The position numbers and the translations under genes were made by a program. Of a stretch of 64,000 bases of DNA, positions 21,267 through 25,493 are shown in pieces. How positions within the stretch are numbered: the first letter of the stretch is position 1; each line of letters opens with the position of its first letter. Source of the stretch: Escherichia coli (GTDB lineage: Bacteria; Pseudomonadota; Gammaproteobacteria; Enterobacterales; Enterobacteriaceae); NCBI RefSeq assembly GCF_003019035.1, contig NZ_CP027447.1, one strand, 5' to 3'. The notes under the pieces were generated by a model, which saw only the letters and a list, made by a program, of their open reading frames with translations, was not told the origin of the DNA and did no database searches.

Positions 21267-21519
21267 TTACGATGCCGGGCGTGGGTTGTTGGCGTCCGGC
21301 TTTATATCAAAACAACTCTTAGTTATTGATAATTAAGATTAACCTCCGCCATTAAAATAGTGGGCACTGACGAGCACTCGTTGTGCTTTCTTTGTTTACC
21401 ATCCCATACTTATCTTCCTGAACATGTTCATATGCCAAAATATCTTCTAATACTTTCGTGACGCTATCCGGTTTATGAAATACACTGATGTAAGATTTTT
21501 ACTTACAGGCGGGTGTAAA

Positions 21520-21771
21520 ATGGCCAGAACGATGACGGTTGATCTCGGCGATGAGTTGCGTGAATTTATCGAGTCCTTAATTGAATCCGGCGACTATCGC
21601 ACCCAAAGCGAAGTGATCCGTGAGTCGCTGCGCTTACTTCGAGAAAAGCAAGCAGAGTCTCGCCTGCAAGCGTTACGTGACATGCTCGCTGAAGGGTTGA
21701 GTAGTGGTGAAGCTCAGCCGTGGGAAAAGGACGCGTTTTTACGGAAGGTGAAAGCAGGGATAAGGAAATAA
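21520..21771 (+). CDS. ParD-family (RHH) type II antitoxin
   Basis: 83 aa from the ATG at 21520 (MARTMTVDLGDELREFIESLIESGDYRTQSEVIRESLRLL), a typical ParD N-terminus. An alternative start exists at 21475. Stop lies 1 nt before the partner gene start. Confidence 0.75.
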   Translation: MARTMTVDLGDELREFIESLIESGDYRTQSEVIRESLRLLREKQAESRLQALRDMLAEGLSSGEAQPWEKDAFLRKVKAGIRK

Positions 21772-21772
21772 T

Positions 21773-22069
21773 GTGCGTACTATAAAACTCATGCCAAAAG
21801 CCAATGAGGATTTAGAAGGCATCTGGTATTACAGCTATCACCATTTCGGCGAACCACAAGCCGACAGATATGTGGAACATCTTTCAGACGTTCTCCAGAT
21901 TCTGAGTAACAATAATATAGGTACGCCCAGACCTGAATTAGGCGAAGGTATTTTTGTTCTTCCTTTTGAACGCCACGTAATTTATTTCCTGCAATCACCA
22001 GAGGAAATTATCGTCATTCGTATCCTTAACCAAAACCAGTACGCCTCCAGACATTTACACTGGAGCTAA
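21773..22069 (+). CDS. ParE/RelE-fold type II toxin
   Basis: 98 aa from the GTG at 21773 (alternative ATG at 21791). The N-terminus (KANEDLEGIWYYSYHHFGEPQADRY) and C-terminus (HVIYFLQSPEEIIVIRILNQNQ) follow the ParE pattern. Confidence 0.75.
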   Translation: MRTIKLMPKANEDLEGIWYYSYHHFGEPQADRYVEHLSDVLQILSNNNIGTPRPELGEGIFVLPFERHVIYFLQSPEEIIVIRILNQNQYASRHLHWS

Positions 22070-22171: not shown

Positions 22172-23533
22172 ATGTTTAAACCGGAACTCCTTTCCCCGGC
22201 GGGAACGCTGAAAAATATGCGTTACGCTTTCGCTTATGGCGCAGATGCTGTTTATGCGGGCCAGCCGCGTTACTCCCTGCGTGTGCGCAACAACGAATTC
22301 AACCACGAAAATCTCCAGCTCGGCATCAATGAAGCCCACGCGCTGGGGAAAAAGTTTTATGTCGTGGTCAACATTGCACCGCACAACGCCAAGCTGAAAA
22401 CCTTTATCCGTGACCTGAAACCGGTGGTGGAGATGGGGCCGGATGCGCTGATTATGTCCGATCCAGGGCTGATTATGCTGGTGCGCGAGCACTTCCCTGA
22501 AATGCCGATCCACCTCTCGGTGCAGGCTAACGCCGTGAACTGGGCGACGGTGAAATTCTGGCAGCAAATGGGACTGACCCGCGTGATCCTCTCTCGCGAG
22601 CTGTCGCTGGAAGAGATTGAAGAGATCCGTAATCAGGTGCCGGGTATGGAGATCGAGATCTTCGTTCACGGTGCGCTGTGCATGGCCTACTCCGGTCGCT
22701 GCCTGCTCTCTGGCTATATCAACAAGCGCGACCCGAACCAGGGCACCTGCACCAACGCCTGCCGCTGGGAGTACAACGTCCAGGAAGGGAAAGAAGATGA
22801 CGTTGGCAACATCGTGCACAAGTACGAGCCGATTCCGGTGCAAAATGTTGAGCCGACGCTGGGCATCGGCGCGCCAACCGACAAAGTGTTTATGATCGAA
22901 GAAGCTCAGCGTCCGGGCGAGTATATGACTGCGTTTGAAGATGAGCACGGCACTTACATCATGAACTCGAAAGATCTGCGCGCTATCGCCCACGTTGAAC
23001 GCCTGACCAAAATGGGCGTGCATTCGCTGAAAATCGAAGGTCGTACAAAATCTTTCTACTATTGCGCACGCACCGCGCAGGTTTACCGTAAAGCTATCGA
23101 TGACGCAGCTGCGGGAAAACCATTCGATACCAGCCTGCTGGAAACTCTGGAAGGTCTGGCGCATCGTGGCTATACCGAAGGTTTCCTGCGTCGTCATACT
23201 CACGACGATTATCAGAACTACGAATACGGTTATTCAGTTTCTGACCGCCAGCAGTTTGTTGGTGAGTTTACCGGTGAGCGCAAGGGCGACCTCGCGGCGG
23301 TAGCGGTGAAAAATAAATTCTCCGTTGGCGACAGCCTTGAGCTGATGACGCCGCAAGGGAACATTAACTTTACCCTTGAGCATATGGAAAACGCCAAAGG
23401 TGAAGCTATGCCGGTCGCACCAGGCGATGGTTATACTGTGTGGATCCCGGTGCCGCAGGATCTTGAGCTAAATTACGCGCTGCTGATGCGTAATTTCTCC
23501 GGGGAAACCACGCGTAACCCCCACGGTAAGTGA
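22172..23533 (+). CDS. yegQ: U32-family peptidase-like protein YegQ (TrhP)
   Basis: 453-aa ORF starting MFKPELLSPAGTLKNMRYAFAYGADAVYAG; U32 family by remembered homology. Confidence 0.9.
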   Translation: MFKPELLSPAGTLKNMRYAFAYGADAVYAGQPRYSLRVRNNEFNHENLQLGINEAHALGKKFYVVVNIAPHNAKLKTFIRDLKPVVEMGPDALIMSDPGLIMLVREHFPEMPIHLSVQANAVNWATVKFWQQMGLTRVILSRELSLEEIEEIRNQVPGMEIEIFVHGALCMAYSGRCLLSGYINKRDPNQGTCTNACRWEYNVQEGKEDDVGNIVHKYEPIPVQNVEPTLGIGAPTDKVFMIEEAQRPGEYMTAFEDEHGTYIMNSKDLRAIAHVERLTKMGVHSLKIEGRTKSFYYCARTAQVYRKAIDDAAAGKPFDTSLLETLEGLAHRGYTEGFLRRHTHDDYQNYEYGYSVSDRQQFVGEFTGERKGDLAAVAVKNKFSVGDSLELMTPQGNINFTLEHMENAKGEAMPVAPGDGYTVWIPVPQDLELNYALLMRNFSGETTRNPHGK

Positions 23534-23617
23534 TTCATTTCGATTATTTTTCCCGGATGGAAAATTCTTAGAAACCGATCACATACAGCTGCATTTATTA
23601 AGGTTATCATCCGTTTC

Positions 23618-23704
23618 GCTGAAAAACATAACCCATAAAATGCTAGCTGTACCAGGAACCACCTCCTTAGCCTGTGTAATCTCCCTTACACGGGCTTATT
23701 TTTT
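23618..23704 (+). ncRNA. cyaR: CyaR (RyeE) Hfq-dependent sRNA
   Basis: Sequence GCTGAAAAACATAACCCATAAAATGCTAGCTGTACCAGGAACCACCTCCTTAGCCTGTGTAATCTCCCTTACACGGGCTTATTTTTT matches CyaR as I remember it, including the terminator hairpin and U-tail. Confidence 0.85.
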
Positions 23705-23861
23705 ATACATAAGCCGTATCCTGGTAACCGTCTTCCATTGACCACATCGATAGAATCTCCCCTCATAGCACGATGCCTTTCACTTATTGGCATCGTGCTC
23801 GCACAGGTTCCGGTTACGCACAGCCAGAACGCGCATGTTTGACGCTTACCAAAAAATATTC

Positions 23862-24179
23862 TCACTCTCCACATTTGAATGTCAGACGAGCGACGCCATG
23901 TAATCCTGCACCTTCTGTCTTCAGGTCAACTATCTGCATTTTTTTTCCCTGAGTAACACAGAAATGAACTGCATCATTTTTTACTATATTTTCTGCACCA
24001 GATATTCTACCCCTGGCTAAAGAAGCTTCGGCTTCGGTGTAGTATTGGTTATCGAGTTTACGCTGGATATTACTTTTATAGGCAAGACCGAATTTACCGA
24101 TACTTGTCTCATCATTATGCACAGCACAACCAGACATAAGAAAAACACTAATTAATGATATAGCAGCTATCTTTTTCAT
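23862..24179 (-). CDS. yegR: Putative lipoprotein YegR
   Basis: 105 aa from the internal ATG (MKKIAAISLISVFLMSGCAV), with a signal peptide and lipobox-like MSGC. The ORF track extends to 24239. Confidence 0.8.
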   Translation of the reverse strand: MKKIAAISLISVFLMSGCAVHNDETSIGKFGLAYKSNIQRKLDNQYYTEAEASLARGRISGAENIVKNDAVHFCVTQGKKMQIVDLKTEGAGLHGVARLTFKCGE

Positions 24180-24593
24180 CTTACCTTCCCCCATTAAATA
24201 CCAACGACACGCTCTGGTGTTTAAATATAATAATGGCATGATTATTATATTTGAATAGGATTATAATAAATGTTCTGTACAACATTTCCTACATAAGTAG
24301 GAATTACATACACGGATGCCCTTCCGGGTAACCCCATGGGGGGGTTAATATATTTTTAATAGTATATTGAAGATGCCACTGTTTAGTTGAATATTAGGTA
24401 TATGCTCTTTTTTGAAATTTATCGGTGGCTGCCGTTAGTATTCGCTGTCCCCATTGCAAGCTCCTGGTGGTAACCACTGAATCTTCCATACTTGAACTGA
24501 CTTTTTATCCTCCGACTTTCATCCTGTTCTGACTCTACCTTTTCTTTTCTGCTCTACACTATCTACAGACCAATCATAAAGGCACATACGATC

Positions 24594-25493
24594 ATGGCAG
24601 AATTTCCCGCCAGCTTACTGATTCTTAATGGCAAAAGTACTGACAATCTACCCCTGCGCGAAGCAATTATGCTGTTGCGTGAGGAAGGAATGACGATCCA
24701 TGTGCGGGTCACCTGGGAGAAAGGCGATGCCGCACGATATGTAGAGGAGGCCCGGAAGTTGGGCGTCGCAACGGTGATTGCCGGTGGTGGCGATGGCACC
24801 ATTAATGAAGTTTCTACGGCGTTGATTCAGTGTGAGGGGGATGACATACCCGCGCTGGGAATTTTGCCATTAGGAACCGCCAATGATTTTGCCACCAGTG
24901 TAGGGATTCCTGAGGCACTGGATAAGGCGCTGAAACTGGCAATTGCCGGTAACGCCATTGCGATAGATATAGCGCAGGTCAACAAACAAACCTGTTTTAT
25001 TAATATGGCGACAGGCGGATTTGGGACGCGTATTACCACAGAAACGCCGGAAAAATTAAAAGCCGCGCTGGGTGGCGTCTCTTACATCATTCATGGCTTA
25101 ATGCGCATGGATACTCTGCAACCGGACCGTTGTGAAATCCGCGGTGAAAACTTTCACTGGCAAGGTGACGCCCTGGTCATTGGTATTGGTAACGGGCGTC
25201 AGGCTGGTGGCGGTCAGCAATTGTGCCCGAACGCGTTAATTAACGATGGCTTGCTGCAACTGCGCATTTTTACCGGCGATGAAATTCTTCCGGCTCTCGT
25301 ATCAACCTTAAAATCTGACGAAGATAACCCGAATATTATCGAAGGCGCTTCGTCGTGGTTTGATATACAAGCCCCACACGAAATCACTTTTAATCTTGAT
25401 GGCGAACCGTTGAGTGGGCAAAACTTCCATATTGAAATACTTCCGGCGGCGTTGCGTTGTCGATTACCACCAGATTGTCCATTATTGCGTTAA
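24594..25493 (+). CDS. yegS: Lipid kinase YegS (DAG-kinase catalytic-domain family)
   Basis: 299-aa ORF with the GGDGT motif ([12 protein letters not shown]). Confidence 0.9.

Follow-up and report, generated by a model that had tools for sequence, protein, structure and literature searches.

The small RNA gene cyaR and the orphan gene yegR of Escherichia coli converge on a short intergenic spacer, and in the 64,000-nt stretch of DNA analysed here (the window) this spacer contains a perfect inverted repeat. An initial annotation had read the spacer as the phage-free form of a site that carries a P2-like remnant in K-12, and had suggested that the repeat could be part of the attachment or recombination target. 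The locus raises the question of whether the repeat has any part in phage integration and, if it does not, where the target lies and what the spacer and its repeat represent.

Organization of the cyaR-yegR interval

The region was 100% identical to that of E. coli strain SCU-301. According to the ORF list yegQ (trhP) ends at 23533, and the gene for the sRNA CyaR (RyeE) occupies 23616-23704 on the plus strand, as defined by Rfam, a terminator scan and the MG1655 annotation. The full-length match to Rfam RF00112 spans 23616-23701 (+; 100.7 bits), the terminator consists of a stem-loop at 23669-23696 followed by a T-tract, and the end of cyaR in the MG1655 annotation, T-tract included, maps to window position 23704. 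The Term-seq 3' end of CyaR (MG1655 2167199) corresponds to about 23703-23704 and falls within the phage attachment (att) core described below. On the minus strand, yegR, a lipoprotein-like orphan gene, occupies 23862-24179 in the ORF list and has the RefSeq length of YegR (105 aa), as annotated in RefSeq under the matches; its stop codon is at 23862-23864 (TCA on the plus strand). The distance of about 160 bp that had been given between the CyaR terminator and the yegR stop was accurate, with a spacer of about 157 bp that begins at 23705/23706 and ends at 23861. The start of yegS follows at 24594.

Many E. coli genomes carry an additional AT-rich segment of 171 bp just 3' of the yegR stop (at about 23857/23858 of the window; L003:1118-1288), with a 41-aa ORF on the yegR strand (MHIFILSVMGYSSTLLLNVSINDKQIDETKAEFLFYAAIRK; 51 aa in the ORF list, from an upstream GTG) for which no Pfam match was found. 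The segment is missing from the window and from K-12, its start is retained in a divergent allele (L032, NZ_JAATUR010000014) of a type that did not turn up in a search of complete E. coli genomes, and the shorter form seen in the window may be a deletion. Two ORFs that overlap the inverted repeat (23773-23952, plus strand; 23686-23874, minus strand) were dismissed as coding sequences because their amino-acid changes vary between alleles and because both are broken by the 171-bp indel in many strains. Farther upstream, a ParD antitoxin/ParE toxin pair lies between yegP and yegQ at 21475-22069 (Pfam E-values of 4e-19 and 2e-13); judging from the MG1655 coordinates, in which only about 110 nt separate the 3' end of yegP (2165559) from the start of trhP (2165668), this module appears to be missing from K-12.

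Location of the attachment core

When the region 23600-23900 was compared with a phage collection, P2 and five other P2-like phages matched at query positions 79-106 only, with 100% identity. These positions correspond to 23678-23705 of the window, which BLAST aligned with P2 (AF063097, 24355-24382, annotated as 'attP core / Int') at 28/28 identical positions, the identity with P2 being limited to this core. The P2 attB core (locI; 27-28 nt, identical to the attP core) accordingly maps to 23678-23705, and by the MG1655 annotation it forms the last 27 nt of cyaR. Recombination is directed at the 27 nt of this core from 23678 to 23704, which close the cyaR terminator and form the true crossover region, where strand exchange by P2 Int would take place, as the integration junctions indicate. 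Since the phage core has the same sequence as the host core, integration reconstitutes cyaR.

The inverted repeat had been placed at the junction and proposed as part of the attachment or recombination target, and neither proposal survived the comparison. The junctions lie at 23705/23706 and the repeat starts 62 nt to the right, outside the 23678-23705 matched by P2 attP. It is true that the repeat is less than 100 bp from the real core, and that a fossil arm-type Int site (TGTGGTCA, 23741-23748, minus strand) is found between the two, as might be expected if the repeat served in attB as a binding site for Int or an accessory factor. We consider such a role scarcely credible, since the repeat resembles neither the core, arms, IHF site or Cox sites of P2 attP nor the P2-family att sequences in the phage collection, all crossover junctions examined fall in the core, the repeat is duplicated neither on integration nor in lysogens, and tyrosine integrases of the lambda family use a simple, core-sized attB. 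The repeat takes no part in P2 recombination.

The site is the open form of the P2 attB locI; both locI and phage targeting of the cyaR 3' end are already known. We take locI to be the preferred P2 integration site of E. coli C; it was reportedly described originally by Barreiro and Haggard-Ljungquist in 1992. The 27-nt core identical to P2 attP and the position between yegQ/cyaR and yegR are the same here, nothing essential differs, and relative to locI and the K-12 remnant the window represents the unoccupied allele. With locI open, this strain should be lysogenisable by P2 at its preferred site. Placing the core in the CyaR terminator rather than in the inverted repeat has little importance beyond correct annotation.

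The site also compares with a wider class of integrase targets at the 3' ends of sRNA and tRNA genes. A passage in PMC3603311, citing Wassarman 2001, refers to ryeE (CyaR) as a known phage target, the sRNA targets named in that paper being ryeE/CyaR in E. coli and ryeB/SdsR in Salmonella, and phages of the 186 type use tRNA and ssrA sites (PMC3448106). We see no difference between these targets and the present one, in which an RNA gene contributes its terminator hairpin and U-tract as the core and has its end restored by the phage, and the cyaR 3' end is also used in Citrobacter, Trabulsiella, Buttiauxella, Enterobacter and E. albertii.

Occupancy of the site

The P2-like remnant (ogrK, yegZ) mentioned for K-12 is indeed located between cyaR and yegR in DH1 and MG1655, where it forms a 631-bp segment inserted at 23705/23706, directly after the core. 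The segment consists of a P arm, the ogr terminator, ogrK, a D-gene fragment (D', yegZ) and a partial core, after which the same flank with the repeat continues. In RefSeq this remnant corresponds to the cryptic prophage PR-X, whose annotated start in MG1655 is inside cyaR, and the identity of PR-X as the K-12 remnant is already known. The 631-bp segment is missing from the window, which therefore has the form unoccupied by the P2 remnant, as had been proposed. The broader claim that no prophage remnant is present was correct for the recent, K-12 type, but it did not extend to the flank itself, which carries a much older and degenerate P2-type arm.

A 120-nt probe across the empty junction was contiguous in 4206 of 5426 complete E. 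coli genomes (about 78%) and split in about 22%, and with a longer probe that tolerated gaps of up to 680 bp the number of contiguous genomes was 4566 of 5426. The remainder comprised about 360 genomes with a small remnant of the K-12 type and about 860 with a large insertion. Integrated P2-like phages, which it had been recommended to look for at this site in other genomes, were found there as full prophages inserted at the core itself, which they duplicate, and P2-like prophages at the site account for about 16% of complete genomes. In the 98 IMG/VR prophage contigs that reach host DNA, the order was always P2 P' sequence, core and this flank, and in one example genome the prophage genes int, C and cox adjoin the yegR flank.

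Two database records at this locus appear to carry misleading names. The GenBank entry 'Phage TP' (L004, AY639599) is a K-12-like chromosomal segment with a partial yegR after yegQ (as 'putative protease'), cyaR and ogrK. The second record is a contig binned as Collinsella (L119, JAIJJM010000051, 'MAG: Collinsella sp.'), which contains an enterobacterial cyaR followed by a P2-type P arm, the ogr terminator and ogr, and is almost certainly a misbinned E. coli/P2 contig.

A probable older insertion between cyaR and yegS

We scanned the cyaR neighbourhood in 120 Enterobacterales species representatives. Most of them, including the nearest Escherichia lineages (L123 and L125), have the order yegQ, cyaR, 80-110 nt of spacer and yegS, with yegS at +79 to +110 nt from cyaR and typically about 85 nt after it, and yegR was absent from beside cyaR in the 120 other species representatives. 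In L123 and L125 the cyaR terminator is directly followed by a spacer near-identical to 24509-24593 (+) of the window, which marks that stretch as the ancestral cyaR-yegS spacer. Homology to these yegR-less lineages resumes at about 24502, at a degenerate second copy of the att core, AATCTTCCATACTTGAACTGACTTTTTAT, located at 24480-24508 and forming the right boundary of the E. coli-specific insertion. Compared with the cyaR copy (23678-23706), this second core is identical at 21/29 positions, with a score of 13 against 6.5 +/- 1.2 in shuffled sequences, none of which reached it (0/1000). The insertion between the two cores is about 800 bp long (23706-24508) and includes both the repeat and yegR, and its GC content is 0.30-0.44, versus 0.50-0.58 in the flanking yegQ and yegS.

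The inner ends of this segment resemble those of P2. At the left end, a degenerate P2-type P arm (23721-23764) was located with a local alignment and the P2 feature table, and it aligns collinearly with the P-arm binding site of P2 Int and the left half of the ogr terminator, with a score of 36 against 15.3-16.6 +/- 2.3-2.4 in shuffles and none as high in either of two runs (0/500 each). Within it the 15-mer CATTGACCACATCGA (23736-23750) is identical to P2 and includes one arm-type repeat, TGTGGTCA, on the minus strand; the arm repeat consensus is tgTGGaCa (PMC3448106). The IHF-site region of the arm is mostly deleted in the window; in other alleles the arm is more complete and includes IHF-site-like sequence. 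Since P2 homology is detectable up to 23764 and the inverted repeat begins at 23767, the repeat belongs with yegR to the non-P2 interior. At the right end, sequence adjoining the second core (24451-24479) aligns collinearly with the P' side of P2 attP, as would the P' side of a fossil attR; over 24451-24507 the similarity is modest, with a score of 29 against 16.5 +/- 2.4 and 1/500 shuffles as high.

Based on these sequence comparisons, we conclude that an older P2-type integration at that core probably left 23706-24508 as its fossil, which now holds yegR. Similar arrangements recur outside E. coli. Insertions after cyaR that are closed by a second core 79-92 nt before yegS were found in E. 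albertii (25/26 identical), Enterobacter sichuanensis, Pluralibacter and others, and P2-type P arms with the same arm motif directly follow cyaR in Citrobacter, Trabulsiella, Buttiauxella, Enterobacter and others. The sRNA terminator would thus be a long-lived, repeatedly used landing pad across Enterobacterales, at which an orphan gene can be stranded. In E. albertii NBRC 107761 (L007) the insert after cyaR is 3.4 kb long (+1 to +3457), opens on a truncated P2-type P arm that adjoins IS-like sequence, and closes with the 25/26 core copy, 88 nt upstream of yegS; it is a younger counterpart of the fossil in E. coli. In a Buttiauxella MAG (L114), an insertion of about 90 nt, which forms a long hairpin of its own, interrupts the ogr-terminator hairpin of a P2-like element beside cyaR.

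The alternative, in which yegR arrived by another route and the P2 likeness reflects chance or recombination with later P2 lysogens, seems unlikely to us. No P2 gene remnant was recovered from 23706-24520, where tblastn searches with Int, C, Cox, Ogr and D' returned only noise, relatives of yegR occur among IS elements in an Enterobacter genome, and the right-end alignment was equalled by one shuffle in 500, all of which would suit a non-phage origin. Against this, the left insertion point coincides with the att core to the base and the right one is a core-like repeat at the ancestral junction, the P-arm match is collinear and was never reached by shuffling, and inserts bounded by core repeats in this way also occur in E. 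albertii and other genera. The second core has diverged by 28%, apparently too much for an insertion that postdates the split from the yegR-less Escherichia lineages, and for that reason the insertion may be older and lost elsewhere, or may derive from a phage with a different core.

In its direct core repeats, inner arm-like ends, low GC content and empty site in relatives, the putative fossil is like other grounded or decayed prophages with att repeats. Unlike them, it is extremely reduced, at about 800 bp and with no recognisable phage gene, and its only gene is yegR, a gene without demonstrated phage origin. The description of the cyaR-yegS spacer as a P2-type fossil of about 800 bp bounded by repeats is the only addition made here; we did not find it in the searchable literature, and it is an ordinary kind of object.

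Homologues of yegR are essentially confined to E. coli and Shigella, and of the few distant homologues none was in a P2 context. An origin of yegR as a P2 moron was not supported, given this distribution and the fact that its PHROG and phage matches come from prophage records that include host flank. The full-length match of YegR to phrog_21109 (E-value 6e-72) is probably such host-flank contamination and no evidence of phage origin; the record of vB_EcoM-720R8 (ON470606), for example, includes the host yegR. Also within the insertion, a terminator-like hairpin with a T-tract (TAACCCCATGGGGGGGTTA followed by ATATATTTTT) is found at 24329-24347 on the plus strand with no gene upstream on that strand, and may be a relic of the decayed element.

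Sequence and rarity of the inverted repeat

The perfect 11-bp inverted repeat with an 11-nt loop that had been noted at 23767-23799 was confirmed by folding, shuffling and an allele survey, as was the lack of a T-tract after it. The arms, AGCACGATGCC (23767-23777) and GGCATCGTGCT (23789-23799), are 100% complementary and form a stem with 7 G-C pairs among 11, centred in the spacer at 62 nt from both the att core and the yegR stop. Predicted folding energies are -21.5 kcal/mol on the plus strand and -25.0 kcal/mol on the minus strand (z about -6 on both). Even a search tolerating 3 mismatches found only one copy of the sequence in the window and gave 0 matches in 100 shuffles, and perfect hairpins of at least 11 bp with loops of 3-20 nt number 4 in the 64 kb, against 0.27 in shuffles.

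Several identities were considered for the repeat and rejected. It is not an intrinsic terminator, either of yegR or as a second one for CyaR, because neither strand has a U-tract and the terminator scan was negative; beyond the stem the plus strand runs on as CGCACAGG and the minus strand as ATGAGGGG, with no T-run in either. A dispersed element, REP, MITE or IS end is inconsistent with the single copy in the window and a median of 1 place per E. coli genome; in IMG/VR, every match was to this locus except for one unrelated coding match. Inheritance together with a yegR cassette was set aside because no related hairpin occurs downstream of the distant yegR homologues (L228, L230 and L232). 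Derivation from an ogr terminator of the P2 family is unproven, as P2 homology stops within the left half at 23764 and the repeat is not followed by the right half (GAGGGG).

The perfect dyad symmetry of the repeat would also fit a DNA operator bound by a dimeric regulator, each arm being an 11-bp half-site and the two centres lying 22 bp from each other, a spacing of two helical turns. This we consider very unlikely for a site that is downstream of both flanking genes and not in a promoter, that is single-copy with no related sites in the window, and in which we recognised no known motif.

Possible roles of the repeat

Our preferred reading, which we hold to be probable though far from secure, is that 23706-23861 is the host-side (B') flank of P2 locI and the left end of the old insertion, and that the repeat acts at the RNA level as a hairpin. 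Most likely, we infer, it is a 3'-end barrier between the convergent cyaR and yegR. Such a stable stem-loop, devoid of a U-tract and located where cyaR (+) and yegR (-) transcription converge, could block 3' exonucleases and mark the 3' ends of Rho-terminated transcripts. On the minus strand the transcript served would be the yegR mRNA, and on the plus strand it would be CyaR read-through or, in lysogens, read-through from prophage int. The CyaR terminator showed 41% read-through in a delta-hfq strain that carried it in a double-terminator plasmid construct (PMC9765468).

In E. coli, the 3' ends of Rho-terminated transcripts are marked and protected by stable stem-loops lacking a U-tract (Dar and Sorek 2018, PMC6061677). 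The repeat is like the members of that class in its predicted stability, in having no U-rich tract and in its position downstream of a gene; it differs in that no 3' end is mapped to it. As to C-rich, G-poor (rut-like) sequence just beyond the hairpin, the two strands disagree: the plus strand is C-rich there (C/G 1.5), and the minus strand is G-rich (C/G 0.48) and so a poor substrate for Rho on the yegR mRNA.

The main rival to a role at RNA 3' ends is a relic without function: the repeat would be left over from the decayed element, or from the unit that carried in yegR, and kept intact only because E. coli lineages are too close for decay to have set in; we regard this as possible, if clearly the less probable of the two. 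The allele survey bears on both. All 11 pairs are kept in 77 of 98 sampled alleles, the minor alleles having single mismatches or wobbles, and the two major alleles differ at three loop positions and at no stem position. In a covariation test, 0 compensatory changes were found in the stem and 7 of 11 pairs never vary, which is compatible with a relic, and polymorphic columns are not clearly fewer in the arms (5/22) than outside them (14/38). We conclude that common descent accounts for the conservation of the hairpin, any evidence of selection being weak at best. The repeat is also missing from the related L032 allele, which retains neighbouring sequence, and it starts exactly where P2 homology ends, both of which favour a relic. 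On the other hand, perfect stems of this length are rare, with the four in 64 kb noted above, the stem is intact in both major alleles despite the divergence of their loops, and the second core copy in the same segment has lost 8/29 positions.

The published 3' ends also lean towards a relic as far as they go. In the tables of Adams et al. 2021 that were searched, which cover few conditions, the CyaR end is listed and no 3' end is given for the K-12 copy of the repeat (2167894-2167926). In the same tables there is no 3' end between 2167199 and 2171800, and yegR may be poorly expressed under those conditions.

An extension of the RNA-level role to the prophage itself is decidedly unlikely in our estimation. 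The flank of locI would then not be passive, its U-less hairpin and C-rich stretch serving as a surrogate 3'-end/Rho module that sets the stability of int mRNA in the prophage. On integration the C-int transcript of P2 would lose its own bidirectional ogr/int terminator and read across the core into the flank, and control of prophage int by the hairpin would be the sib retroregulation of lambda in reverse. In cells without a prophage, the module would prevent transcripts that pass the CyaR terminator from extending antisense into yegR. It is also a possibility that locI owes part of its status as the preferred P2 site to the arm-type Int site preserved in the flank (23736-23750).

A second perfect inverted repeat of at least 11 bp, AAATATAATAA...TTATTATATTT, was observed at 24223-24252, in the AT-rich region upstream of yegR, where it overlaps promoter-like hexamers.
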